The notes: generated by a model not told the origin, from the sequence alone. Shown: positions 32,881-46,920, counted from the stretch's first letter. The stretch: 64,000 nt of DNA from Bacteroidota bacterium (GCA_947485745.1 CANKQY010000004.1:9337-73336); one strand, 5' to 3'. Numbers and translations are program-made.

Positions 32881-33777
32881 CTACTTTAAAATGTAATTGC
32901 TTTGGTGAACCAATACATTTTCTGCGTAAACATTAATGACATAGGTTCCTGGTGCAAGTATCCTTTCATCGTTTTCAAAGGCCAAACACAAGTCTTGCTT
33001 TTCGCCAGTATAAGTAACTTTGATACTTGATGTGGCATCTACTTGCTTACCATCAGCATCTGTAAACTGTGCCTTGGTATAGCCCATTAATGTTTTACCT
33101 GTTGGTTCTGAAATAACAAGGTAAATCATTTTATCGCCAGCTCCAGCAACTTTATTATCCATAAGGGTGAAGCACGACTCTAATTTATTGGTACGCTTAG
33201 CCAATACACTTTCAGTATATTTTCCATTTCCGCGTTTTTTGAAAGAAGCAATTTTAACATACTCTACCTTTAATTGAGAAGCTGTTGCCACTTTACCTTC
33301 AAGCAAATTCTTTTGTTCATTCAAATTTGTAACTGTTGAATTTAATCCAGCATTTTCGTTTTTCAGTTTTTGATTTTCTGCCATTAAACTGTCTATTTGC
33401 TCTAAATATTCATCACGCAATTTTCTTAAATTTTCCAATTCAACTTTTAACTTTGCATTGAGTTTAGATTTGTCTTTCTCGCTTGCCATAATATTGCGAA
33501 TTTTTTGCTCTTGCTCCGCAATTTTATCTTTGGCATCATTTAATAAAGTATCAAGGTTTCCGGCAATACCGCGGTACTTTTCAAGCTCCATTCCAACACT
33601 TGCCAGTTCCCTATCAATTTCAACGTTGGCGTTCATTAAACTATCAACTTGGGTGCCGTGTTCAACAATTTCAGTTGAATGTGTTTTCCATTGGTAAATA
33701 TTAACACCAATTGAGGTAATCAGTAATAAAAGCAATAACGTTAAGGTATTGCGATTTTGTTTTTCTTGTTCTGCCAT
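32881..33777 (-). CDS. Membrane-anchored coiled-coil protein with a C-terminal beta-rich domain
   Basis: N-terminal TM helix (LTLLLLLLITSIGVNIY) and a long heptad-like region (KLKVELENLRKLRDEYLEQIDSLMAENQKLKNEN). I recognise no family. Confidence 0.5.
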   Translation of the reverse strand: MAEQEKQNRNTLTLLLLLLITSIGVNIYQWKTHSTEIVEHGTQVDSLMNANVEIDRELASVGMELEKYRGIAGNLDTLLNDAKDKIAEQEQKIRNIMASEKDKSKLNAKLKVELENLRKLRDEYLEQIDSLMAENQKLKNENAGLNSTVTNLNEQKNLLEGKVATASQLKVEYVKIASFKKRGNGKYTESVLAKRTNKLESCFTLMDNKVAGAGDKMIYLVISEPTGKTLMGYTKAQFTDADGKQVDATSSIKVTYTGEKQDLCLAFENDERILAPGTYVINVYAENVLVHQSNYILK

Positions 33778-33867: not shown

Positions 33868-35148
33868 TTATTTAACAACGGTGTTTGATAAAATAACCGA
33901 TCCCTTTTTTATAATAGCAATGCCATCCTTGATACAATACTGCTCAGTTTCTGAGTCGCTCATCTCAGTACTTATCATAAAAACTACATTGTTACCAATC
34001 CTCACATCTTTATCAATTATGCAATTTTCGAGGTAACAGTTATCGCCAATGCCCATAGGGATTCCATTTTGGGGGTTGCTTAATTCTTCCAGGCTTTCGT
34101 AATAGTCGTTGCCAAAAGTAACACAATTGCGCATCACTGTTCCAATACCAATCCTTGACCTATTGCCTACAATGCAGCGCTCTAATTCTGCCGCATTGAT
34201 AATACAACCCTCAGAAACCACGGTTCCTTTAAGCAAAGTACCACTATAAAACTTTGAAGGTGGCAGCATCCTTGCTCTGGTGTATATTAACCTGTCGTCA
34301 TCAAACAAATTAAAACTAGGTATATTTTCTGCTAAATCAAGATTGGCATCAAAATAACTTTTAATGGTTCCTATATCTGTCCAATAGCCATTGTAAGAAT
34401 ATCCTTTAACCTTTAGTCCTTTTTCTATGGCACCAGGAATAAATTCTTTTCCAAAGTCTGTATGATGTGGGTTTTCATCAAACATTCTCTTTAAGGTTTC
34501 TCGGTTAAAAATATATATACCCATTGAAGCCATATATTCTTTGCCTTGAGCCTTCTGCTCGGGCTCAACATTTGATATCCAGTTCTCCAATTCATCTGGG
34601 TGAGGCTTTTCAATAAAACGGTCGATAAAACCATCGTTATTTACTTTTAAAATACCAAAACCAGGTGCATCATTTTTATCAACTGGCAATGTTGCTACAC
34701 TTATTTCGGCACCACTATCTACGTGCTTGTTTACAAACTCACGAAGGTCCATTTGGTATAACTGATCACCACTTAAAATAAGTATATAATCATGGTCGTG
34801 CCCTTCCAAATGAGGGAATGTTTGTTTCACCGCATCGGCAGTACCTTGAAACCATTTTTCACTACCTGGTCTTTGTTCTGCGGCAATAATATCTACAAAT
34901 GCATAGCTAAAATGATCAAAATGGTAAGTGTTCTTTATGTGTGCGTTTAGCGAACGTGAATTGTATTGGGTCAAAACAAAAATTCGTTTTATCCCTGAGT
35001 GCAAACAATTGGAAATTGGAATATCTATTAACCTGTATTTTCCTGCAATAGGAACCGCAGGTTTACTCCTAATGGAAGTCAAAGGATATAACCTTGAACC
35101 TGCGCCGCCTCCCAATATAAGGCATATAATTTTAATGGTTTTTTGCAT
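33868..35148 (-). CDS. glgC: Glucose-1-phosphate adenylyltransferase
   Basis: ILGGGAGSRLYPLTSIRSKPAVPIAGKYRLIDIPISNC and a C-terminal left-handed beta-helix region. Confidence 0.9.
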   Translation of the reverse strand: MQKTIKIICLILGGGAGSRLYPLTSIRSKPAVPIAGKYRLIDIPISNCLHSGIKRIFVLTQYNSRSLNAHIKNTYHFDHFSYAFVDIIAAEQRPGSEKWFQGTADAVKQTFPHLEGHDHDYILILSGDQLYQMDLREFVNKHVDSGAEISVATLPVDKNDAPGFGILKVNNDGFIDRFIEKPHPDELENWISNVEPEQKAQGKEYMASMGIYIFNRETLKRMFDENPHHTDFGKEFIPGAIEKGLKVKGYSYNGYWTDIGTIKSYFDANLDLAENIPSFNLFDDDRLIYTRARMLPPSKFYSGTLLKGTVVSEGCIINAAELERCIVGNRSRIGIGTVMRNCVTFGNDYYESLEELSNPQNGIPMGIGDNCYLENCIIDKDVRIGNNVVFMISTEMSDSETEQYCIKDGIAIIKKGSVILSNTVVK

Positions 35149-35151
35149 ACA

Positions 35152-36558
35152 TTAACTTTTATAAATTTCAATATAAGTTTTTACAGCCTTTGTCCATGAA
35201 AAATCTAACTTAACGGCTAGTTCTCTTACATGATCAAATTTATCAGAATCTACATACAAATCAAAAGCCCTGTATAAACTTGTAACCAAATCATAGGCCT
35301 CTGGCGCATTGAATCGAATGCCATAGCCACCAAAATCGCCAAAATCAATTACAGTATCTTTTAAACCTCCTACCGCCCTTACAATTGGAATAGTGCCATA
35401 CCTCAGCGCATACATTTGGTTCAAACCGCAAGGCTCTACCAATGATGGCATCATTAAAAAATCTGCCGCAGCATAGAGCCTATGAGCCAACTCCTCGTTG
35501 TATCCAATATAATTTGCAACATTGGAAGGATGGTAACTGCTCAACCGCCTAATAGCATCCTCAATTTGGTTTGCGCCTGAACCCAAAACGTAAAAATTCA
35601 TTTGTTGGTTACCTACTAAAAAATCATGAATTCCTTGATACACCAACTCACCTCCCTTTTCTGTATTTAACCGACCAATAAATACGGTTAGTGGCAAAGT
35701 GGGATCAAGCCCTACTGATTTGCAAATCGCTTCTTTGTTATTTTGTTTAAAAGATGTCCAATCATTATTCAAAAGATGTATTAAATAATTATCTGTTTTA
35801 GGATTCCAAACCTCCGTATCTATACCATTTACAATACCTTTACATTTGAACCCATACTCATTATATAGCCAATTATACGCGTTATCTTGGTATTTCAATT
35901 CATCTAAATAACCAGCACTTACTGTGGTTACCTTATTGCTGCATTTAATGCCAGAAGCCAATGGGTTTATGGTTTGATCCCACTCCAATAACCCAAAAGT
36001 TTCTTTAGGGAAATGAGGAAAATAACTCAATAAATATGTTGGAAACGCCCCAGAGTATAATCCATTGTGAATGGTGAAAACTGTTCTGATGCCTGCCAAA
36101 TTTCCATAGTCATAACAGTTATTTATCATGAATGGAATTAAGCCCGTATGGTAATCATGGCAATGAATTATTTCTGGTTTTTGAGCCCAATTATTGATCC
36201 AATTAATGGCAGCTTGTTGAAAAAATATGAACCGTATTGAATCATCATCATAGCCATAAATATTATCTCTAAACAACAAATTTGGTATATCAACTAAGTA
36301 TACATCGTAGCCTAAATGAACGTCTAAATATCTAAGGATTTTATACTCGATAAAAAAATTCTCATTGGTACAAATACCCTCATGAATAGCTTCTGAAGGG
36401 TGAGTAGCATTCCATTTTTGATTATACTTTGGCAGTATTACACAGGTGCTAATTCCTGCAATATTTAAATATTTTGGTAGTGCTCCTACCACATCACCTA
36501 AGCCACCAACTTTTGCAATTGGAAAACACTCTGCCGATAAATGAATTGCTTGGTACAT
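35152..36558 (-). CDS. glgA: Glycogen synthase (GT5)
   Basis: ECFPIAKVGGLGDVVGALPKYL, CHDYHTGLIP, PSLVEPCGLNQMYALRYGTIPIVRAVGGLKDTV. Confidence 0.9.
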   Translation of the reverse strand: MYQAIHLSAECFPIAKVGGLGDVVGALPKYLNIAGISTCVILPKYNQKWNATHPSEAIHEGICTNENFFIEYKILRYLDVHLGYDVYLVDIPNLLFRDNIYGYDDDSIRFIFFQQAAINWINNWAQKPEIIHCHDYHTGLIPFMINNCYDYGNLAGIRTVFTIHNGLYSGAFPTYLLSYFPHFPKETFGLLEWDQTINPLASGIKCSNKVTTVSAGYLDELKYQDNAYNWLYNEYGFKCKGIVNGIDTEVWNPKTDNYLIHLLNNDWTSFKQNNKEAICKSVGLDPTLPLTVFIGRLNTEKGGELVYQGIHDFLVGNQQMNFYVLGSGANQIEDAIRRLSSYHPSNVANYIGYNEELAHRLYAAADFLMMPSLVEPCGLNQMYALRYGTIPIVRAVGGLKDTVIDFGDFGGYGIRFNAPEAYDLVTSLYRAFDLYVDSDKFDHVRELAVKLDFSWTKAVKTYIEIYKS

Positions 36559-36622
36559 AAACTAAATCCTTGAACTGCAATTTATCAAATTAAATAGCAA
36601 TAAATTTAATAAAATATAAAAT

Positions 36623-37420
36623 TTATTTTGAACCAAATGCCCAATTGAGAAAATAGGGTATTGCTATGCCATAAGTTTCTAAAGTATGCCTACCTCCTAT
36701 TATTTCATTGTAAGATAAATCTTCTCCGTTAATAAAGCCCAATGCTTCCAACTCTTTTATCAAATCCAAGGTGTCATCTATGCTATCTATTATCCCATTA
36801 TTATTTCTGTCTGAAGTTTCATCTAAAGTTCCACAAGCAAAACATATTTTAAGTTGTGGTTTAATAGCAGTTTCCCTTACTAATTGGTGAATGATTCTAT
36901 CCGCGTCAGTGTAGTTGTCTTTAAGGTCTTTTCTACGCCACCAAAAAGAGCCACTACAAGCAAACACTTTGCTAAACTCTGCAGGATTATTCCAAGCAAT
37001 ATCAAAGGCGGATAATGCTCCCAAGCTAAACCCACCAATCACTTTTTCTTCAAAATGCTTAATTTTTAATCTCCGCATTAACTCAGGAATCATTATTTTC
37101 ACCACAAAATCACCATAAGCTGCGGCTAAACTTCCCCTACCTTTAAAATCAGGAATGCCAGAAACACCATAGGTTTGTAGGCGATCATAGGCATGTGGTG
37201 CAAACAAAATAAATGGCTTACTCACCTTTTTATGCCATACCTCCAATAAAATCAAATCCATGTTCATGCCAGCCATATCTTGTCCATCATTTAGCAACAA
37301 TAAAGGGTAATTATGGCTTGGATCAAACCCAAATGGCAGCATAACATCCACCAAAACATCTTGTTGAATGGTATCCCAATAAATTTTTCTACGGCGAACT
37401 ACTGGATTACTTTTGAGCAT
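36623..37420 (-). CDS. Esterase-family alpha/beta hydrolase (enterochelin-esterase-like)
   Basis: LLLNDGQD, GGFSLGALSAFDIAW (GxSxG) and GGRHT. It is adjacent to glgA. Confidence 0.6.
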   Translation of the reverse strand: MLKSNPVVRRRKIYWDTIQQDVLVDVMLPFGFDPSHNYPLLLLNDGQDMAGMNMDLILLEVWHKKVSKPFILFAPHAYDRLQTYGVSGIPDFKGRGSLAAAYGDFVVKIMIPELMRRLKIKHFEEKVIGGFSLGALSAFDIAWNNPAEFSKVFACSGSFWWRRKDLKDNYTDADRIIHQLVRETAIKPQLKICFACGTLDETSDRNNNGIIDSIDDTLDLIKELEALGFINGEDLSYNEIIGGRHTLETYGIAIPYFLNWAFGSK

Positions 37421-37532
37421 CTACGCAATGTTATAACCTTTTGCCTAATTCATCATTAATTGATTTTACACAAATATGGAAAAAGAAAAAAAAACTATAT
37501 ATTTAACAATAATTAAAAACATAAAAAACACA

Positions 37533-37576
37533 ATTGATGATTCAATAAATCCATAAAATAATCTCATTGAATCAAT
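37533..37576. promoter_or_regulatory. Two related inverted repeats ATTGA-N-TCAAT upstream of the ATP-grasp gene
   Basis: ATTGATGATTCAAT (37533-37546; arms ATTGA/TCAAT, 4-nt spacer) and ATTGAATCAAT (37566-37576; same arms, 1-nt spacer). They lie 30-75 bp before ATG 37607. Confidence 0.3.
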
Positions 37577-37606
37577 AAGAAATATTAAATGCAAAATCAT
37601 AAAACC

Positions 37607-38653
37607 ATGAAAAAAATCGGAATCTTATTTGGACAAGAAAACACCTTCCCTCAGGCATTTGTAAACGAAATAAATAGCAGAGGTGAAAAAGACATTGAAG
37701 CTGAATTTGTAAAAATGGACAAGTTGAGTCAAGCCTCAGATTCTGGCTATGCGGTGATATTCGATAGAATTAGTCAGGATGTACCTTTTTACAAAGCCTA
37801 CCTTAAAAACGCAGCCTTAATGGGTGCAACCATTATCAATAATCCTTTTTGGTGGAGTGCCGATGAAAAGTTTTTTAACAATTGTTTGGCCGTTAAATTA
37901 GGTGTACCAGTTCCTAAAACTTACTTATTGCCTTCGCATGTTCGCCCAGATGATACCAGCGAAAACTCATTTAGGAATTTAGCCATGCCTATGGATTGGG
38001 AAACAATGTTCAAGGAAATTGGCTTTCCAGCATATATGAAACCTCATTCTGGTGGTGGTTGGAAAAGTGTATACAAGGTTAAAAGCATAGAAGATTTTTA
38101 CGAAAAACACGCTGAAACCGGCCAGTTGGTGATGCTTTTGCAAGAAGAAATTATCTTTGATGAATACTTTAGGTGCTATTGCATTGGTGGCAAATATGTA
38201 AAAATAATGCAATATGAACCAAGAAATGAACCCCATTTGCGATATGTGGTAGAAACCCCTGTTTCTAGTCAGGCTTTATTAAATACCGTTGAAGAATATA
38301 CCCTAACTCTTTGTAACGCGCTTGGCTATGAGTTCAATACAGTTGAATTTGCAGTTAGAGATGGTATTCCTTATGCCATTGATTTTTGCAACCCTGCTCC
38401 AGATGCAGATGTTCATTCTGTGGGTCAAGAAAATTTTGATTGGGTAGTTAAAACCGCGGCAGATTTTGCAATTGAAAAAGCAAAAAGTCATGTTGATGGT
38501 GGAAACAATCAAACTTGGGGAGGTTTTATCCGTGAATCGGCAGCTGGTAATGCTGCACCTGCAAAAAAAGCAACAGCACCCAAAGCTGCAGCCCTTAAAG
38601 TTGCTAAAAAGGGAGCAGCAAAAAAAGCACCACAAAAAGGAGCAGGGAAATAA
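37607..38653 (+). CDS. ATP-grasp ligase with a C-terminal Lys/Ala/Pro-rich (histone-H1-like) tail
   Basis: ATP-grasp landmarks YMKPHSGGGWKSVYKV, LLQEEI and NTVEFAVRDGIPYAIDFCNPAPD. The last 37 residues are AAGNAAPAKKATAPKAAALKVAKKGAAKKAPQKGAGK. The start is taken at ATG 37607. Confidence 0.7.
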   Translation: MKKIGILFGQENTFPQAFVNEINSRGEKDIEAEFVKMDKLSQASDSGYAVIFDRISQDVPFYKAYLKNAALMGATIINNPFWWSADEKFFNNCLAVKLGVPVPKTYLLPSHVRPDDTSENSFRNLAMPMDWETMFKEIGFPAYMKPHSGGGWKSVYKVKSIEDFYEKHAETGQLVMLLQEEIIFDEYFRCYCIGGKYVKIMQYEPRNEPHLRYVVETPVSSQALLNTVEEYTLTLCNALGYEFNTVEFAVRDGIPYAIDFCNPAPDADVHSVGQENFDWVVKTAADFAIEKAKSHVDGGNNQTWGGFIRESAAGNAAPAKKATAPKAAALKVAKKGAAKKAPQKGAGK

Positions 38654-38720
38654 TATTTTAATAACTAAAAGTCAATTTTGGATCAAACAGAATTGGTTTT
38701 TTAATTAACCCATAAAGCAG

Positions 38721-39833
38721 ATGCATGCTAGTAAATTTACTTTAGGAATAGAGGAAGAATACATGGTAATTGACCCAATTACCCGCGAACTAAAATCGCA
38801 TGAACAAAAAATTGTGGAAGCTGCAGGCAAATTGCTGTCCGACGATTCTGTAAAAGCCGAAATGCATCAAGCTGTGGTAGAAGTTGGTACAGGCATTTGC
38901 GAAAATACTACTCAAGCAAGGCAAGAGCTGGCTGGCTTAAGAAAAAACATCAATATGGTGGCTGGTGACCTTGGATTGCAAATTGGCGCAAGTGGCACCC
39001 ATCCTTTTAGTATGTGGCAAACCCAATTAATTACTGATCACCCCAGATACAGAGAAATTGTGCATGAGTTGCAAGATGCTGCTAGGTCTAATTTAATCTT
39101 TGGATTACATGTGCATGTTGGAATGGAAAACAAACAAATGGCTATTCATATTGCCAATTCTATGCGTTATTTTCTACCACATGTTTACGCCCTTTCTACC
39201 AATTCACCGTTTTGGGAAGGCCGAGATACTGGGTTCAAATCTTTTAGGACCAAGGTATTTGACAAATTTCCCAGAACGGGTATTCCAGATTATTTTGAGA
39301 GTTTTGAGGCGTACGATAACTATATAAAACTTCTTATTAAAACAGGTTGTATAGACAATGCCAAAAAGATTTGGTGGGATTTACGCGTGCATCCATTCTT
39401 TGATACCGTTGAATTTAGAATTTGTGATATTCCAATGTTATTGGATGAAACCATTGCCATTGCTGCTATTTTTCAGGCATTGTGTTACAAATTGTATTTG
39501 TTAAGATTAAAAAATATCCAATTCATAGATTACAACAGAGCACTCATTGCCGAAAATAAATACAGGGCATCGCGCTACGGTATTGAGGGTAAATTGATTG
39601 ATTTTGGCAAAGAAAAAGAAGTGGAAACAAAATACTTAATTGAAGAATTGCTCGATTTTGTAGATGATGTTTTAGATGAATTGGGTAGCAGAAAAGACAT
39701 CAGTTATGTTTATGAAATGCTTAAAAATGGAACTGGTGCTGATAGACAATTGGCAGTCTATAATAAAAACAAAGACATGAACGAACTAGTTGATTTTATT
39801 ACACACTCCACACTTATTGGAACAGATATTTAA
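38721..39833 (+). CDS. YbdK/GCS2-family carboxylate-amine ligase
   Basis: FTLGIEEEYMVIDPITREL, GLHVHVGM, FLPHVYALSTNSPFWEGRDTGFKSFR and WWDLRVHPFFDTVEFRICD are canonical GCS2 blocks. Confidence 0.85.
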   Translation: MHASKFTLGIEEEYMVIDPITRELKSHEQKIVEAAGKLLSDDSVKAEMHQAVVEVGTGICENTTQARQELAGLRKNINMVAGDLGLQIGASGTHPFSMWQTQLITDHPRYREIVHELQDAARSNLIFGLHVHVGMENKQMAIHIANSMRYFLPHVYALSTNSPFWEGRDTGFKSFRTKVFDKFPRTGIPDYFESFEAYDNYIKLLIKTGCIDNAKKIWWDLRVHPFFDTVEFRICDIPMLLDETIAIAAIFQALCYKLYLLRLKNIQFIDYNRALIAENKYRASRYGIEGKLIDFGKEKEVETKYLIEELLDFVDDVLDELGSRKDISYVYEMLKNGTGADRQLAVYNKNKDMNELVDFITHSTLIGTDI

Positions 39834-39875
39834 ATCATTGTTTGTAAGTATTCTATTATTTAATTGAATACACAT

Positions 39876-39883
39876 TATTTTTG
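39876..39883 (+). promoter_or_regulatory. Bacteroidota-type -7 promoter box (TAnnTTTG)
   Basis: TATTTTTG lies 20 nt upstream of ATG 39904, in a 70-nt intergenic gap. Confidence 0.3.
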
Positions 39884-39903
39884 CAAATTAACAAGAATAA
39901 ATA

Positions 39904-40722
39904 ATGCCATCGTTTAAAGTTGCTATATTGGATATGTATAAAGGAGAGCCAAATCAAGGGATGAGGAATATCCATGAAATATTAAACAGATACGCAGAAG
40001 AAAAAGAACTAGAAGTTACCAAGGAAGTTTTTAATGTAAGGCAGCAAAATCAAATACCCGATTTAAGCTTTGATGCCTATATTTCTTCGGGTGGACCAGG
40101 CAGTCCAGTTGATTTGGAAGGTTGGGAAGATGCCTACCTAGAATTTTTACATTCCATTATTGTTTACAATGAAAACCATAAACATAAAAAAATGGTGTTC
40201 CTCATTTGCCATTCTTTTCAAGTGTATTGCTACCATTTTAAATTGGCCAATGTTTGTAAAAGAATGAGCGAATCATTTGGTATATTTCCTATGTACAAAA
40301 CAGTAGATTGCTTAGAAAATAAATTCACCAAATTACTCGCTCAACCTTTTTATGCAGTAGATTCAAGAAAATGGCAGGTAATTCAACCAGATTTGTATGC
40401 CTTAGATATGATGGGCGCTAAAATATTAGCCATTGAAAAGGAACGACCAAACATTCCTTATGAAAGAGCTATCATGGCAATTCAATTTACACCCGAAATA
40501 ATTGGAACCCAATTTCACCCAGAGGCCGATGCTGAGGGAATGAAGTTTTACCTGAAAAGCGAAGAAAAGAAAAATGTGGTGGTAGCAAATTATGGTCAGG
40601 AAAAATATGATAGTATGATTACACTCTTGGCTGATGAAGATAAAATTCCTACAACACAAAAAAACATGATTCCTGTATTTTTAGATGAAGCCCTTTCACA
40701 ACATTTTAATTTAGTTCATTGA
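39904..40722 (+). CDS. Stand-alone class-I (type 1) glutamine amidotransferase-like protein
   Basis: ISSGGPGSP, the nucleophile elbow FLICHSFQ and a His-Glu pair in GTQFHPEAD. Confidence 0.75.
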   Translation: MPSFKVAILDMYKGEPNQGMRNIHEILNRYAEEKELEVTKEVFNVRQQNQIPDLSFDAYISSGGPGSPVDLEGWEDAYLEFLHSIIVYNENHKHKKMVFLICHSFQVYCYHFKLANVCKRMSESFGIFPMYKTVDCLENKFTKLLAQPFYAVDSRKWQVIQPDLYALDMMGAKILAIEKERPNIPYERAIMAIQFTPEIIGTQFHPEADAEGMKFYLKSEEKKNVVVANYGQEKYDSMITLLADEDKIPTTQKNMIPVFLDEALSQHFNLVH

Positions 40723-40723
40723 A

Positions 40724-41914
40724 ATGATTCAAGCAATTAGAGAAAAATACAATGCAGCATTTAACGAGGAAAATTATCAAAAATTCCTTCAACACCTTGA
40801 TGGCTTGTTTAACAAAGAAGTAATATTTAGAGTAGCCGAAACGCCTATTTTTGTTGACAAAACACTAAAAACAAAATTAATTTTTGCTTGTGAAAATATC
40901 ATAGATGAAATTTTAAATCCCAATTTCAAAGAACTCACTCAAAGGGCCATTCCTAAAAACCTTGAAGTTAAAAATGAAAATGACCACCCTCATTTTATAT
41001 GCATTGATTTTGGAATATGTGAAGACGCTCTTGGCAATTTAATACCTCAAATGATAGAGATGCAAGGCTTTGCGAGTTTATACGCTTGGGAAAACATTAT
41101 TGGCAATCAATACAAAGAACACTTTTATTGCCCACCAAATTTCAATCATTTATTGAGCAATTTAGATAGTGATAGTTTTACTGCTTTGCTCAAAAAAGTT
41201 GTTTTAGCTAATTGTAATCCCGAGGAAGTTGTGCTCATGGATTTGAAACCACATGAGCAAAAAACAAGAATTGATTTTTATGCCACGCATGATTTGCTGG
41301 GTATTCCAATTATTTGTTTAAGCGATTTGATCCAAAAAGAAAACAAATTATTCTATTTAAAAGATGGCACAGAAATGCTTATAAAACGTATTTATAATAG
41401 ATTGATATTCGACGACCTTGCTGCCAATACAGATTTTACTTATTCAGCAGATTTATTTTCTGATTTGGATGTAGAATGGGTTGGGCACCCTAATTGGTTT
41501 TATAGGATCAGCAAATACACCATGCCTTTTTTAAATAATGCCTTTGTTCCTAAAACCCAATTCCTTCATGAGGTAGCAACGATTCCAAACGATTTAGAAA
41601 ATTATGTATTAAAGCCATTGTTTAGCTTTTCTGGCCAAGGTGTAATAATTGATGTTACGCCAGAAGACATAACCCAAATTAAGGATCCTGAAAATTGGAT
41701 ACTTCAATCAAAAGTTAAATATGCAGAAGTTATTGAATCACCCACAGGAAAAGTGAAATGCGAAATTCGCATGATGTACCTTTGGCCCGATGGCGATAAA
41801 AGACCAACATTAGCTACCAATTTAGGAAGAATGAGTAAAGGAAAAATGATTGGTGTTCGATATAACCAAAACATGGATTGGGTTGGGGGTAACATTGCTT
41901 TTTTTGAAGATTAA
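40724..41914 (+). CDS. Putative ATP-dependent amidoligase, glutathionylspermidine-synthase/YgiC-YjfC-like (tentative)
   Basis: ICIDFGICEDALGNLIPQMIEMQGFASLYAW resembles the RFDF...LLEYNADTPT block of GspS-type enzymes. LKPLFSFSGQGV, CEIRMMY and GRMSKGKMIGVRYNQNMDWVGG resemble ATP-grasp nucleotide and Mg motifs. At 396 aa it is close to the length of YgiC/YjfC. This call rests on pattern recognition only. Confidence 0.45.
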   Translation: MIQAIREKYNAAFNEENYQKFLQHLDGLFNKEVIFRVAETPIFVDKTLKTKLIFACENIIDEILNPNFKELTQRAIPKNLEVKNENDHPHFICIDFGICEDALGNLIPQMIEMQGFASLYAWENIIGNQYKEHFYCPPNFNHLLSNLDSDSFTALLKKVVLANCNPEEVVLMDLKPHEQKTRIDFYATHDLLGIPIICLSDLIQKENKLFYLKDGTEMLIKRIYNRLIFDDLAANTDFTYSADLFSDLDVEWVGHPNWFYRISKYTMPFLNNAFVPKTQFLHEVATIPNDLENYVLKPLFSFSGQGVIIDVTPEDITQIKDPENWILQSKVKYAEVIESPTGKVKCEIRMMYLWPDGDKRPTLATNLGRMSKGKMIGVRYNQNMDWVGGNIAFFED

Positions 41915-41916
41915 TT

Positions 41917-43023
41917 ATGAAATATTTTTTAATAGCTGGCGAGGCCAGTGGCGATTTATTAGGTGCCAGTTTAATGGAAGGTATTATTACAAAAGACCCT
42001 CAAGCAGAATTTAACTTTTGGGGTGGCGATGAAATGAGCAAAAAATCTACCGGTCTTTTGCAACATTACAGAGACATTGCCATCATGGGTTTTGTAGAAG
42101 TGTTAATGAATATCAGAACCATCAAAGCAAATTTGGAGCGATGCAAACAACAAATAACCAGTTACCAACCAGATGTTTTAATACTCATAGATTTCCCCGG
42201 ATTTAATATGCGCATGGCAGAATTTGCCAAAAAATCTGGCATTAAAACTTGCTATTATATTGCCCCAAAAATTTGGGCTTGGAATGAAAAACGTGGTTTT
42301 AAATTAGAAAAATACATCGACTTATTACTACTCATTTTTCCTTTCGAAATTGAGTATTTTAAAAAGTGGAAAGTAAACTCACTTTATATTGGTAATCCCT
42401 TATTTAACCAAACGCAAGTATTTATTCCTGACCCAAACTTTAGAGAAAAAAACAAGCTCAACCAAAAGCCAATTATTGGATTATTGCCCGGAAGTCGCAA
42501 GCAAGAAATAAAACGCATGCTTCCTAAAATGGTATTACTCGCCGCTAAATATCCCCAATACCAATTCATCATTGCAGGTTCACCAGGCCTTACTGCCGAT
42601 TTCTACACCTCCTACTTAAGTGAAAATGTAAAATTGATATTTCATGCTACCCGAGATATTTTAGCGCACAGTGAGGCTGCGTTGGTATGCAGTGGAACCG
42701 CCTCTTTGGAAACTGCTTTTATGAAGGTGCCTCATGTGGTTGCATACGCAGCGCAACCTTTAACCTATTTAATTGCTTCTGGTTTTGTAAAAGTAAAATA
42801 TGCATCTATTATGAACCTCAGCTTTGATAGGGAAGCTGTAAGAGAATTGATCCAACATCATTTTACCCTCGAAAACCTTCAACTAGAATTTGAGGCTATT
42901 TTGCCTGGCGGGTCAAAACAACAAAAACTCCTAGCAGACTACGAACTATTGCATCAACTCTTTTCAAAAAAGAATGCGAGTGAAGCAGGTGCCGAAGCCA
43001 TCATTAAGATGATCAATGCTTAA
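41917..43023 (+). CDS. lpxB: Lipid-A-disaccharide synthase
   Basis: IAGEASGDLLGASLM, IDFPGFNMRMA, YYIAPKIWAWNEKR, LLPGSRKQEI and CSGTASLE. It starts 2 nt after the previous stop. Confidence 0.9.
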   Translation: MKYFLIAGEASGDLLGASLMEGIITKDPQAEFNFWGGDEMSKKSTGLLQHYRDIAIMGFVEVLMNIRTIKANLERCKQQITSYQPDVLILIDFPGFNMRMAEFAKKSGIKTCYYIAPKIWAWNEKRGFKLEKYIDLLLLIFPFEIEYFKKWKVNSLYIGNPLFNQTQVFIPDPNFREKNKLNQKPIIGLLPGSRKQEIKRMLPKMVLLAAKYPQYQFIIAGSPGLTADFYTSYLSENVKLIFHATRDILAHSEAALVCSGTASLETAFMKVPHVVAYAAQPLTYLIASGFVKVKYASIMNLSFDREAVRELIQHHFTLENLQLEFEAILPGGSKQQKLLADYELLHQLFSKKNASEAGAEAIIKMINA

Positions 43024-43633
43024 AATCTAAAATTGCTAAACTGGCATCACAAAAATCATATTCATACAATTGGTTGCTTGCAATAATAATGGTACGCTTT
43101 TTTAGTTGGGTTTGAACCAAATTTCTATACCATGCAATACCTTGTTCATCTAAATTCGAGCAAGGTTCATCTAAAAGCAACAAGGGAGTATTGGCATATA
43201 TAGCCATCACCAATTTGAGTCTTTGTTTCATTCCCGAAGAAAAGTGCTTGATGAACTTATTTTCTTGACCGCTTAAACCACAAGCTTGTATCATTTCTGC
43301 TAAGGTAATGTCATCCTGCTTTGGAATAATGCCAAAATGAAATTGAAGCATTTCCAATAAGTTAAAATCATCTAATAAATCTAGGTAAGGTGCAGCAATT
43401 GAAATTTTTCCAACCAAATTTTCTTCTGCTAAAATTTTACCCGCTAGCTCATATTGAATCAAACCTTTTGAATAAGTTTGGTAATTAAATATGATTTGAA
43501 TTAACGTAGATTTTCCCGAGCCATTATTGCCTACTAAAGCATAAGAACCGTTTGATTGGAAATCAAAATTTACCCCTTTAAAAACCCACTGTCGGTTAAA
43601 CTTTTTACCTATATCCTGTAGTGAGATTTTCAA
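43013..43633 (-). CDS. ABC transporter ATP-binding protein (short, stand-alone)
   Basis: Walker A GNNGSGKST, signature FSSGMKQRL and Walker B LLLLDEP. Confidence 0.8.
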   Translation of the reverse strand: MKISLQDIGKKFNRQWVFKGVNFDFQSNGSYALVGNNGSGKSTLIQIIFNYQTYSKGLIQYELAGKILAEENLVGKISIAAPYLDLLDDFNLLEMLQFHFGIIPKQDDITLAEMIQACGLSGQENKFIKHFSSGMKQRLKLVMAIYANTPLLLLDEPCSNLDEQGIAWYRNLVQTQLKKRTIIIASNQLYEYDFCDASLAILDFKH

Positions 43634-43659
43634 GTGATTGAAAGTGAAAAGACTAAATA

Positions 43660-44436
43660 TTATTTAAATCCCTTGAGCACACCGCGCTCCGAATTCCTTA
43701 TAAAAGAAAGAATTTCATCTCTTTCGGCAGTTATTTCCATTTCTGCTTCAACTATTTCGAGGGCTTTACTCAAATTGCGGTTATGGATAAACAAAATGCG
43801 ATAGATATCTTGTATTTCAGTAATCTTTTCATTACTAAAACCACTTCTCCTTAAGCCAACTGCATTTACGCCTTCATATGTCAACGGATACCTTCCAGCT
43901 TTAATAAAAGGAGGCACATCTTTACTTACCATACTACCCCCTTCAATCATCACATTTCTACCTACCAACCCAAACTGATGAATAGCAGATAAACCGCCAA
44001 TTCTTGCGCCATCTTGGATGGTAACATGTCCGGCCGCTTGCACCCCATTAGCAATAATTACTTGGTTACCAATAATGCAATCATGTGCCAAATGAGAGTA
44101 GGCCATAATTAAACAGTTTGAACCAATCTCTGTTTTAAATTTATCTTTGGTACCGCGGTTAATGGTTACACATTCGCGTATGGTAGTATTATCGCCAATA
44201 ATTGCTATGGTTTCTTCTCCATCAAATTTTAAGTCTTGAGGTATTGCAGAGATTACCGCCCCTGGAAAAATTCTTACGTTTTTTCCAATTCTTGCTCCAG
44301 GGTATATAGTTACGTTTGAACCAATCCAGGTGCCATCCCCAATTTCCACATCTTGGTGAATCATGGTAAACGGATCTACAGTCACATTTTCTCCAATGCG
44401 AGCCCGTGGGTTAATTGATGACAAGTTATGTATCAT
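43660..44436 (-). CDS. lpxA: Acyl-ACP--UDP-N-acetylglucosamine O-acyltransferase
   Basis: Hexapeptide repeats throughout, ending in the LpxA helical C-terminal domain (NAVGLRRSGFSNEKITEIQDIYRILF). Confidence 0.9.
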   Translation of the reverse strand: MIHNLSSINPRARIGENVTVDPFTMIHQDVEIGDGTWIGSNVTIYPGARIGKNVRIFPGAVISAIPQDLKFDGEETIAIIGDNTTIRECVTINRGTKDKFKTEIGSNCLIMAYSHLAHDCIIGNQVIIANGVQAAGHVTIQDGARIGGLSAIHQFGLVGRNVMIEGGSMVSKDVPPFIKAGRYPLTYEGVNAVGLRRSGFSNEKITEIQDIYRILFIHNRNLSKALEIVEAEMEITAERDEILSFIRNSERGVLKGFK

Positions 44437-45827
44437 TTATTATTAACTTTTACAACTTGTGCCATTAATTCTGCCTCACAAACTAATTTCTCTCCAACAA
44501 AAGCACTTCCTTTCATTATGGTAATTCCTCTTCTAATTGGACCAATTAAATCCAACCTAAAAATAAGCGTATCTCCTGGCACTACCTTGTCCTTAAACTT
44601 GGCATTGTCTATTTTCATGAAATAAGTATTGTAGTTTTCTGGATCTTCTACTTTTGATAAGATTAAAACCCCACCTGCTTGTGCCATTGCCTCAATAATG
44701 AGTACGCCTGGCATAATTGGGTTACCAGGAAAATGACCCTGAAAAAATGGCTCATTAAAAGTAACATTCTTGATGGCAATAATATGATTTTGACCAACCT
44801 CTAAAACCTTATCTACTAAAAGAAAAGGAAAGCGATGAGGCAACATTTTCTCAATTTGCTCTGCCCTATATAAGGGAGGTTTATTAGGATCATATTTAGG
44901 AACTCTAACTGAACTTCTAGATTTTTTAATTAAAGCCTTGATCTTCTTACCAAAGGCAATATTTGCAGCATGCCCCGGTCGAGCGGCCATAATTTGAGCT
45001 TTTATAGGCACACCAATTAGGGCTAAATCACCTATTAAATCAAGCAATTTATGCCTTGCTGGTTCATTGTGAAAACGCAAGTCAACATTGTTTAAAATAC
45101 CTTCCTTCTTTACTTCTACTTTTGGCTTATTAAACATCTTAGCCAAATTATCCAGCTCACTATCTTCAATCACCCTATCAACAATAACTATGGCATTGTT
45201 TAAATCGCCACCTTGGATCAAGCCGTTATTGTATAAAAACTCTAATTCATGTAAAAAGCAAAAAGTTCTACAACTGGCAATGTCTGTTTCAAACTCCTTT
45301 AAATTAGTTAAAGAGGCATGTTGTGAACCTAAAACTGGTGAATTATAATCTACCATTACCGTTAACCTATAATCGTCTAATGGCATGGCAATCATCTCTA
45401 CACTTCTATCTGCTTCCGTGTAATAAATATTATGTGGCACCACAAAATACTCCCTCTCCGATTCTAATTCTTGGATGCCAGCATCTTTCAATGCTTTCAT
45501 AAAAAATTGAGAACTGCCATCCATAATTGGTGTTTCACCACCATTGATTTGAACCATGCAATTGTCAATTTCCAATGCAGCCAAAGAAGCCATTACGTGC
45601 TCAACTGTTGCAACTCTTGCGCCATTTTGCTCAATGGTGGTACCCCTAGAAGTATCAACCACATTGTCAACATCAGCATCTACCATGGGCATGCCTGGTA
45701 AATCAACCCTCTGAAATTTAATTCCATGGTTATCTTCTGCAGGAAGGAAGGTGAGTGTAACCATTTGGCCAGTATGCAGACCAACCCCTTCTAAACTTAC
45801 AGATTTCTTAATCGTTGTTTGCTTCAT
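44433..45827 (-). CDS. lpxC/fabZ: Bifunctional UDP-3-O-acyl-GlcNAc deacetylase / 3-hydroxyacyl-ACP dehydratase
   Basis: N-terminal LpxC (TIKKSVSLEGVGLHTGQ, ATVEHVMASLAAL, HKLLDLIGDLAL) is fused to FabZ (LPHRFPFLLVDKV, FFQGHFPGNPIMPGVLIIEAMAQ). Confidence 0.9.
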   Translation of the reverse strand: MKQTTIKKSVSLEGVGLHTGQMVTLTFLPAEDNHGIKFQRVDLPGMPMVDADVDNVVDTSRGTTIEQNGARVATVEHVMASLAALEIDNCMVQINGGETPIMDGSSQFFMKALKDAGIQELESEREYFVVPHNIYYTEADRSVEMIAMPLDDYRLTVMVDYNSPVLGSQHASLTNLKEFETDIASCRTFCFLHELEFLYNNGLIQGGDLNNAIVIVDRVIEDSELDNLAKMFNKPKVEVKKEGILNNVDLRFHNEPARHKLLDLIGDLALIGVPIKAQIMAARPGHAANIAFGKKIKALIKKSRSSVRVPKYDPNKPPLYRAEQIEKMLPHRFPFLLVDKVLEVGQNHIIAIKNVTFNEPFFQGHFPGNPIMPGVLIIEAMAQAGGVLILSKVEDPENYNTYFMKIDNAKFKDKVVPGDTLIFRLDLIGPIRRGITIMKGSAFVGEKLVCEAELMAQVVKVNNK

Positions 45828-45882
45828 AAATATTGCTGCAAAAAAACGAAAAGTTAGCGTATTGTTAAGCTTTTTTTCGTTT

Positions 45883-46920
45883 TTATTCTTTCTTCAAGGA
45901 TTTAATCTCCTTTTCAAGCGTGTCAATTCTAATCAAAAGTTCGGGTAAACGCTTAAATAATGAGGCCGATCTTAATGCGTCTCTCACTCCTAGTATGGGT
46001 GTTCCGAACCATTTTCCATTTTCTTCTTTGATAGAACCTACCACACCACTTTGGCCCCCAAACTGATTATTATCGGCTATGGTTAAATGTCCGGCAAAGG
46101 CTACCTGACCACCAATAACATTGTATTTTCCAATTTTTGTGGAGCCTGCAACGCCAGCCTGACCTGCAATAACGGTGTGATCGCCTACTTCGGCATTGTG
46201 GGCAATTTGAATGAGGTTGTCAAATTTAACCCCTTTTCTAATATGGGTTGAACCCATGGTGGCCCTGTCTATTGTGCAATTTGCGCCAATCTCCACATCC
46301 GATTCCATGATCACATTTCCAATCTGAGGAATTTTTTTATAAGAGCCATCAGGTAAAAGAGAAAATCCAAAGCCATCACCACCAATGATGGTTCCTGAGT
46401 GTAAAATACAGTTATCGCCAATGATACAATCGTGGTAAATTTTAACCCCAGAATAAAAAATACAGTTTTTACCAACCTTCACATTCGCACCTAAAAACAC
46501 ATGCGGAAATAGTTTGGTATTCTCTCCTACTGTAACATTTTTTGAAACATAGGCGAATGCTCCTACATAAGCATTTTCGCCAACCACAGCAGTCTCATCT
46601 ATAAAACTCATTTGCTCAATTCCAGCTAATTCAATAGCAGTGTTTCCAAATTGTTCAAGCAGGTTAGTGAAGGTTGCGTAGGAATCTTCCACCCTAATTA
46701 AAATAGTATTGTATGCTTTTGATGGAACAAAAGTTTTATTGACCAAAACAGCAGATGACTGAGTGGTATAAATATGATTTTCGTATTTGGGATTGGCAAA
46801 AAAAGAAAGTGCACCTGTAGTTCCTTCTTGAATTTTTGCAATGGTATTAAGCATTTGAGTGCCATCTCCTTCAAAGGTTCCTTGCACTAATTCGGCAAGT
46901 TCTGCGATACTAATTTGCAT
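45883..46920 (-). CDS. lpxD: UDP-3-O-(3-hydroxyacyl)glucosamine N-acyltransferase
   Basis: An N-terminal uridine-binding domain followed by a long hexapeptide-repeat region (IGDNCILHSGTIIGGDGFGF, IAHNAEVGDHTVIAGQAGVAGST). Confidence 0.9.
   Translation of the reverse strand: MQISIAELAELVQGTFEGDGTQMLNTIAKIQEGTTGALSFFANPKYENHIYTTQSSAVLVNKTFVPSKAYNTILIRVEDSYATFTNLLEQFGNTAIELAGIEQMSFIDETAVVGENAYVGAFAYVSKNVTVGENTKLFPHVFLGANVKVGKNCIFYSGVKIYHDCIIGDNCILHSGTIIGGDGFGFSLLPDGSYKKIPQIGNVIMESDVEIGANCTIDRATMGSTHIRKGVKFDNLIQIAHNAEVGDHTVIAGQAGVAGSTKIGKYNVIGGQVAFAGHLTIADNNQFGGQSGVVGSIKEENGKWFGTPILGVRDALRSASLFKRLPELLIRIDTLEKEIKSLKKE

Follow-up and report, generated by a model that had tools for sequence, protein, structure and literature searches.

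A conserved Bacteroidota gene cluster of three ligase types and a class-I glutamine amidotransferase-fold enzyme: gene order, folds and a tentative function

What do three kinds of amide-forming ligase make together with a stand-alone glutamine amidotransferase (GATase), and does the lipid A gene lpxB that follows them belong to the same system? The question is posed by a 64,000-nucleotide (nt) stretch of Bacteroidota bacterium GCA_947485745.1, called the window, with positions counted from its first letter. The four ligase and amidotransferase genes are named G1, G2, G3 and G4; estA and estB are genes of Fes-like esterases. A first-pass annotation of this DNA had proposed an ATP-grasp ligase, a YbdK/GCS2 ligase, a class-I GATase with an intact Cys-His-Glu triad and a GspS/YgiC-type ligase. 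All four enzyme types are recovered, the first and the last at the level of fold. Judged from sequence, G1–G4 form a vertically conserved cytoplasmic operon of Bacteroidota, and lpxB lies outside it. The preferred reading, held tentatively and with somewhat less than even confidence, is that G1–G4 build a small conjugate step by step, either a gamma-glutamyl-type peptide or a peptide-amine (polyamine) compound, and that the esterases recycle or degrade it.

A scan of one genome per GTDB species gave 330 relatives of G4, and 80 loci were taken. Arrangements were determined by tblastn and clustering of open reading frames (ORFs) and counted where the upstream flank reached 4.5 kb or more, which left 55 loci. 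The order G1-G2-G3-G4 is present in 21 of the 55, with both esterases in 14 of these. Partial forms (G2-G3-G4, G1-G3-G4, G3-G4 and others) account for 8; the three named all retain the G3-G4 pair, the tightest of the cluster. G4 stands alone in 26, mostly in Saprospiraceae and Lewinellaceae. The complete cluster occurs in three orders, Sphingobacteriales, Chitinophagales and Cytophagales, and is carried by Mucilaginibacter, Pedobacter, Chitinophaga, Ferruginibacter, Rufibacter, Hymenobacter, Larkinella, Dyadobacter and Arcicella. Because the same order recurs in 21/55 loci and in three orders, the cluster is more than a chance association, and the proposal that its genes are co-conserved in relatives holds. 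Identity between orders is about 65% for G1 and about 50% for G4. The operon is evidently under strong purifying selection, as its sequences indicate. The absence of a precursor peptide is likewise upheld: a comparison of at least 20 cluster-bearing loci found no small ORF, whether for a precursor peptide or a LysW-like carrier, that is conserved across orders. A nonribosomal peptide synthetase or an exporter was not seen with the cluster.

Flanking genes vary with lineage. In Sphingobacteriaceae only, a membrane protein of about 53 amino acids (aa), rich in Cys (...GCGSNCKCG...), is encoded just 3' of G4 (L002:9257-9418, L004:9256-9417, L012:9387-9548, L019:9084-9245), beyond which Pedobacter has the genes of a Crp/Fnr-type regulator and of YceI. 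A class-III (ArgD/putrescine-type) aminotransferase gene lies just 3' of the cluster in Spirosomataceae. In about 28 loci of Saprospiraceae and Lewinellaceae, for example L030:7029-9935, the neighbours of solitary G4 are rsmE and the undecaprenyl-diphosphate synthase gene uppS, the latter usually divergent.

G4, the core gene of the module, is on present alignments the founder of a separate, Bacteroidota-centred family that has no curated model. It has no match in Pfam or NCBIfam. Sequence searches of the PDB, with the single sequence and with a 27-sequence profile, were also empty, so G4 is informative only by structure comparison. The AlphaFold2 (AF2) model has a predicted local distance difference test score (pLDDT) of 90.3 and a predicted template modelling score (pTM) of 0.91. 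At E ≤ 1e-3 Foldseek matches it to 22 PDB chains, all circularly permuted ATP-grasp; the next match has E 0.1. Matched folds are yeast, human and plant glutathione/homoglutathione synthetases, nematode GSS-like effectors, GspS, Mfla_0391, YgiC/YjfC and the E-64 ligase Cp1B (1m0w, 1e-13; 2io7, 4.7e-13; also 3n6x, 7uk8/7uk6 and 9cjn). Assignment of the fourth protein to the GspS/YgiC-YjfC type of ATP-grasp ligase is thus supported at fold level by AF2 and Foldseek, and not by sequence thresholds. Against PF03738 (GSP_synth) G4 scores 12.5 bits, under the gathering score of 29.3; matches to this family are sub-threshold in 9 of 27 orthologs (best E 0.011). PF14403 (CP_ATPgrasp_2; cut-off 32 bits) is matched below threshold by 8 of the 27 (best E 4.9e-4) and stays sub-threshold in distant relatives too. 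CP_ATPgrasp_1 gives sub-threshold matches only among the orthologs. With hhalign, the G4 profile aligns locally with YgiC over 79 columns (E 8e-4), covering the E.YV.KP.FS..G motif of G4 and pairing the ATP-binding strand ENYVLKPLFSFSGQGV with EKYVVKPIFSREGANV; full-length E. coli Gss gave no match to the same profile. Invariant residues are E112-x-Q114, K297-P298, G304/G306, E347/R349 and N381, in motifs that appear to resemble those of GS and GspS. The family is large: clustering at 90% leaves at least 8000 homologs, and at 50% identity there are 1620 representatives, of which 344 have E values below 1e-30.

Several distant members of the family have unusual forms or neighbours. G3-G4 fusions were considered and rejected, since the long homologs are a symporter fusion or carry N-terminal signal-peptide/linker extensions, not a GATase. 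The symporter fusion (P0128, 870 aa) places a sodium:solute symporter (PF00474) N-terminal to a complete G4 domain and is either a real fusion or a gene-calling read-through. Proteins P0158, P0165, P0194 and P0197, from high-GC organisms, have a signal-peptide-like start, then an Ala-rich linker of about 150 aa. Two such proteins are encoded in tandem in L095 (1560-3209 and 3206-4018). The ATP-binding Lys and E-x-Q are kept in this group. An exported protein of ATP-grasp fold would be odd. A distant homolog, P0260, follows a 992-aa fused MFS/spermidine-synthase-like gene (L081:4710-9293), which hints at a polyamine link. Homologs of 33–35% identity lie directly 3' of CutA1-rplM-rpsI (L092:4430-5668; L094:5731-8263, the latter as tandem paralogs); this adjacency may reflect a ribosome link or the synteny of a single lineage.

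G2 is assigned on family scores to the YbdK/GCS2 carboxylate-amine ligases: 199.4 bits against PF04107 (cut-off 21), 291.7 against TIGR02050 (176.4) and 521.7 against NF010039 (371). G3 reaches 29.4 bits against PF00117 (cut-off 22.8), a family matched by 21 of 21 orthologs (best 1e-12). Its orthologs invariantly keep C102, H205, E207, the SGGPGSP oxyanion motif and Q106 (CxxxQ), and G3 carries a conserved C-terminal extension of about 65 aa. The closest PDB sequences are the MetA acyltransferase 2vdj (7e-5), an acyl-Cys enzyme, and 3l7n, an uncharacterised GATase. A gamma-glutamyl hydrolase of the PuuD type (Peptidase_C26) was rejected, PF07722 being matched by 0 of 21 orthologs at E ≤ 0.1. 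In the relatives L085 and L086, G3 overlaps G4 by 4 nt; on this basis G3 may be a glutaminase subunit that passes ammonia to its partner.

PuuA and PuuD are a ligase of glutamine-synthetase fold paired with a class-I GATase-fold hydrolase, and the presence of both kinds of enzyme here allows a catabolic or salvage route with transient gamma-glutamylation. G2 would gamma-glutamylate an amine or amino acid, G3 would remove the glutamate, and esterases and ATP-grasp enzymes would handle peptide or ester precursors. Two hydrolases are co-conserved, and the aminotransferase gene of Spirosomataceae would suit such a route. However, the cluster has no conserved companion among oxidases, dehydrogenases, transporters or regulators, G3 matches PF00117 and not Peptidase_C26, and G3 accompanies G4 rather than G2. 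Three ATP-consuming ligases are also hard to fit into degradation. A route of this kind is therefore quite improbable.

G1 is given the classical three-domain ATP-grasp fold by its AF2 model (pLDDT 80; tail below 50). Foldseek returns 541 PDB matches at E ≤ 1e-3, of which Ddl is the top (7.8e-14); RimK-domain 5i47, LysX/ArgX and MdnC/PsnB are among the other top matches. Sequence matches are weak. Pfam gives R2K_2/R2K_3 only, below threshold, and the profile comparison with Ddl gives 0.0035. Assignment to the RimK family of alpha-L-glutamate ligases was rejected, TIGR00768 scoring 30.2 bits against a curated cut-off of 143.4. Among 20 orthologs K145-P146, G149-G151, Q179-E180 and E247 are invariant (KP..GGGW and QEE motifs). 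The Mg-binding motif is D259-F-C-N262 (IDFCNP, D-x-x-N), one residue longer than E-x-N.

The C-terminus of G1 is unlike the rest of the window. Residues 318–348 (nt 38558-38650) are a disordered, Lys/Ala/Pro-rich, histone-H1-like tail of 31 residues, and such a C-terminus is found in 1 of 51 window ORFs, that of G1. A tail of at least 25 aa after the conserved NLTWG motif is present in 110 of 120 homologs; net charge exceeds +3 in 107 of the 110 tails, with a median of +10. Three forms occur: H1-like K/A/P repeats, tandem AT-hooks (KRGRPAKPK; P0318, PF02178 at 23.1 bits, cut-off 17.4) and a helix-hairpin-helix (HhH; P0335, PF14520 at 27.5 bits, cut-off 27; also in L080, 5767-7050). Further homologs with tail appendages are P0376, P0388, P0365, P0372, P0369 and P0354. 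In a minority of orthologs (L008, L017, L021, L025) the tail is absent. Tails of a DNA-binding type are a new finding for G1 and appear unusual for an ATP-grasp enzyme. In the bacterial regulator CarD, HMGA-type (AT-hook) and H1-like DNA-binding domains are functionally interchangeable, and HMGA-like domains were known in 2010 in only two prokaryotic proteins (PMC2919716). Swappable tails, taken with this interchangeability, argue that G1 would work on or beside DNA, possibly RNA.

From this follows a different account of the cluster, as a writer/eraser system for the tail of a protein or peptide on a nucleic-acid-associated substrate, for example a nucleoid or ribosomal protein. The basic tail would hold G1 on DNA or RNA, and the enzyme would extend a protein with amino acids at the C-terminus or on a side chain, in the manner of RimK, LysX and TTL. 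G2 and G4 would add gamma-glutamyl or amine (polyamine) groups, and G3 and the esterases would remove them. Beside the charge, the three interchangeable forms and the restriction of the tail to one ORF of the window, the best target-normalised TM-scores of G1 (0.71–0.73) favour this account, being those of LysX/ArgX and of RimK-domain 5i47, which act on protein C-termini. Two distant G4 homologs directly 3' of rplM-rpsI are also in line with it. YgiC and YjfC are peptide-spermidine ligases acting on peptide C-termini (Pederick 2023, as cited in PMC11762307). Set against these points, G1 is far under the RimK family cut-off, neither the operon nor its flanks hold a conserved gene that could encode the substrate, some orthologs lack the tail, and the rplM-rpsI adjacency may stem from one lineage. 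Furthermore, characterised YbdK/GCS2 and glutathione-synthetase-fold enzymes use small-molecule substrates. The account is a strong competitor of the preferred reading, although less likely than not. Its more specific version is unlikely: a nucleoid-tethered multi-ligase system whose peptide, gamma-glutamyl or polyamine tail would be built on DNA-bound polyamines or on a protein associated with chromatin or ribosomes, with the GATase-fold cysteine hydrolase and Fes-like hydrolases as erasers. If true, it would be a bacterial counterpart of the glutamylation-type marks of eukaryotic chromatin and tubulin. Of the two options of the first-pass annotation, a small molecule and a RimK-like modification of protein tails, the G1 tails give the second more weight than it received there.

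Three ligase types, a Cys enzyme and serine hydrolases, with no carrier or precursor, fit stepwise synthesis and turnover of a small amide, which remains the preferred reading. The best structural matches of G4 all make small amide conjugates, and combinations of G2-type ligases with GATase-like thiol peptidases were earlier interpreted as synthesis of small peptides, not protein tagging (PMC2588565). Substrates, order of steps, nature of the product and role of G3 are inferred as follows. Assembly would proceed through acyl-phosphate intermediates, by a logic like that of glutathione and then glutathionylspermidine. G2 would make a gamma-glutamyl-X bond, and both G1 and G4 would lengthen the product by joining another amino acid or amine to a free carboxylate; the fold of G4 is that of enzymes whose substrates are gamma-glutamyl peptides or a peptide and spermidine. 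G3, always directly 5' of G4 or overlapping it, would as a Cys-His-Glu enzyme on gamma-glutamyl amides pair with G4 as a two-protein unit. It would either hydrolyse the conjugate, like the amidase domain fused to GspS, or pass glutamine ammonia to the acyl-phosphate on G4, as in CarAB or MurT/GatD. The esterases would recycle or degrade the product, and lpxB would stay outside the system.

Several observations weigh against stepwise synthesis of a small conjugate. Its substrates are drawn by analogy from fold and family. G4 fails the sequence threshold of every curated ligase family, and G1 is below GshB-type family thresholds too. The DNA-binding-type tails on most G1 orthologs are odd for the synthesis of a free metabolite. 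No transporter, regulator, or thiol or polyamine biosynthesis gene is consistently linked to the cluster. G4 is solitary in Saprospiraceae and some clusters are without G2, so that the four enzymes do not make up a linear pathway in which each is required.

The position of lpxB (PF02684, 279.6 bits, 4.5e-83; TIGR00215, 243 bits) had been taken by the first-pass annotation as a possible sign of an envelope-associated product. Comparison does not support this link. G4 adjoins lpxB only in the source contig (L089) and in L088 (89% identity), and in 0 of 79 GTDB loci; in L085 and L086 (71% and 64% G4 identity) an endonuclease or alpha-amylase gene is found instead. The juxtaposition is confined to the lineage of the window, and lpxB is, by this comparison, not part of the conserved module. 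It abuts, and belongs with, a convergent ABC-lpxA-lpxC/fabZ-lpxD block (43013-46920, lpx genes on the - strand), overlapping the gene of the ABC-type ATPase (-, 43013-43633) by 11 nt at the 3' ends (43013-43023). That the product is destined for the cell envelope or lipid A, or becomes linked to either, is consequently highly improbable. In its favour are the 2-nt gap with no terminator-like site between G4 and lpxB, the retention of the adjacency at 89% identity, and uppS, another envelope gene, beside G4 in Saprospiraceae. However, the abutting lpx block explains the position of lpxB, and G1–G4 have no signal peptide or membrane segment in their sequences. Envelope neighbours in two of about eight independent contexts are the chance expectation. 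Tight spacing is weakly informative, since 11 of 33 same-strand junctions in the window, one third, have gaps of ≤6 nt. Co-transcription of lpxB with G4 in the source lineage is nevertheless plausible.

One or two Fes-like esterases accompany the operon in most relatives. estA is divergent from G1 in at least 18 loci of three orders. estB, the second, upstream and co-directional esterase, lies between estA and G1 in 17 loci and is missing from the window. Both belong to PF00756 and are weakly similar to enterochelin and bacillibactin esterases. S-formylglutathione hydrolase was rejected as an identity, the nearest relatives being these siderophore esterases. In the window estA precedes glgA-glgC by 64 nt and, to all appearance, opens a glycogen operon (33868-37420, - strand); this is a second lineage-specific juxtaposition, like that of G4 and lpxB. 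In Larkinella (L015:4362-4829, with an equivalent gene in L038) a DinB/YfiT-like gene stands between estB and G1. It scores 49 bits, below cut-off, against the bacillithiol-transferase family and is a weak hint at thiol chemistry.

Coordinates of the locus are collected in Table 1. Re-reading of ORF positions and junctions returned the five + strand ORFs where they had been placed and the reported gaps of 67, 70, 1 and 2 nt. The start of G1 (MKKIGILFGQE) is preferred to the upstream ATG at 37589, the N-terminus being conserved in an alignment of 20 orthologs. estA and G1 presumably have their promoters in the region between them. The TAnnTTTG box reported before G3 is present and matches the -7 consensus of Bacteroidetes, TAnnTTTG. 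The window as a whole has 112 copies of this motif where 108.6 are expected, which is no enrichment, so the box alone is no evidence of a promoter; it may be an internal one. Sigma-70 and terminator scans gave background level and are uninformative for Bacteroidota. No Rfam element, riboswitch or leader was found in 36000-44000, and no PADLOC defence-system match for G1–G4 or estA. Further upstream (32881-33777, - strand) is a gene for a protein of 298 aa, which has a hydrophobic segment at its N-terminus and a long region, rich in Glu, Lys and Asn, that resembles a coiled coil.

Table 1. Features of the G1–G4 locus, in positions of the window.
Feature	Position	Strand	Basis
estA, Fes/BesA-like alpha/beta-hydrolase	36623..37420	-	PF00756 'Putative esterase', 6.6e-16
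AT-rich intergenic region between divergent estA and G1	37421..37606		direct reading
G1, classical ATP-grasp ligase (predicted), no curated family	37607..38653	+	AF2 model, Foldseek
G2, YbdK/GCS2 carboxylate-amine ligase (glutamine-synthetase fold)	38721..39833	+	PF04107 at 1.1e-58
TAnnTTTG box, TATTTTTG	39876..39883	+	20 nt 5' of G3 start
G3, stand-alone class-I GATase-fold enzyme	39904..40722	+	PF00117, Cys102-His205-Glu207
G4, circularly permuted ATP-grasp ligase (predicted)	40724..41914	+	AF2 model, Foldseek
lpxB, lipid-A-disaccharide synthase	41917..43023	+	PF02684, TIGR00215

Carriers of the operon come from soil, fresh water and the sea and belong to at least three orders of Bacteroidota; G4 is nonetheless annotated as hypothetical. 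Identification of the product would give a function to a large orphan family of ligases with the glutathione-synthetase fold. A new protein modification might come to light in a major phylum, or a new low-molecular-weight amide such as an osmolyte, a thiol or a polyamine conjugate. A tempting link to lipid A biosynthesis is corrected.

Literature searches on this cluster, on the CP_ATPgrasp families and on ATP-grasp enzymes with AT-hooks found no description of the system and no matching characterised pathway; the first-pass annotation likewise knew of no characterised product. A 2009 survey by Iyer, Abhiman, Burroughs and Aravind reportedly predicted amidoligase neighbourhoods of this general kind. 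The closest described neighbourhood, that of CP_ATPgrasp_2, is said in the Pfam text to comprise a GCS2-like ligase, alpha/beta-hydrolases, a GAT-II amidohydrolase and an M20 peptidase, with synthesis of small peptides predicted. As so described, it has in common with the present cluster a circularly permuted ATP-grasp enzyme, a GCS2 ligase, alpha/beta-hydrolases and an amidotransferase-type protein. There are four differences: G4 does not reach the threshold of PF14403, the protein of amidotransferase type is of class II there and class I here, the M20 peptidase is not seen here, and a classical ATP-grasp enzyme with a DNA-binding tail is additional here.

G1 has the fold and nucleotide-binding motifs of RimK, LysX/ArgX and Ddl-type ligases and differs from them in family scores, in the D-x-x-N motif and in its DNA-binding-type C-terminal tail. 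A ligase gene of glutamine-synthetase fold or ATP-dependent type beside a class-I GATase-fold Cys enzyme, as in G2/G3 and G3/G4, is the arrangement of PuuA/PuuD, CarA/CarB and MurT/GatD. The Puu cycle has accompanying oxidoreductases, unlike this cluster, and G4 is neither a CarB-type nor a Mur-type ligase.

YgiC and YjfC (PDB 7uk6-7uka) are stand-alone proteins of about 390 aa that have the fold of G4 with insignificant overall sequence similarity to it; their physiological substrate is also unknown (PMC11762307). The ygiB-ygiC genes sit behind tolC, whereas G4 sits beside GATase, GCS2 and ATP-grasp genes. E. coli Gss and trypanothione synthetase-amidase have the circularly permuted ATP-grasp fold of G4 as well. 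G4 gives no significant profile match to Gss and misses the PF03738 threshold; the partner in Gss is a fused CHAP amidase, that of G4 a separate class-I GATase-fold protein. The amidase-then-synthetase order of Gss is mirrored by G3, a cysteine enzyme, immediately 5' of G4. Eukaryotic glutathione and homoglutathione synthetases (1m0w, 2hgs, 3kal) are the top structural match (E 1e-13, TMq 0.60), at 12–15% identity; G4 is about 80 residues shorter, and PF03917 matches are sub-threshold and occur in distant relatives of G4 only. G4 paired with a GCS2-type ligase is reminiscent of how glutathione is made in two steps.

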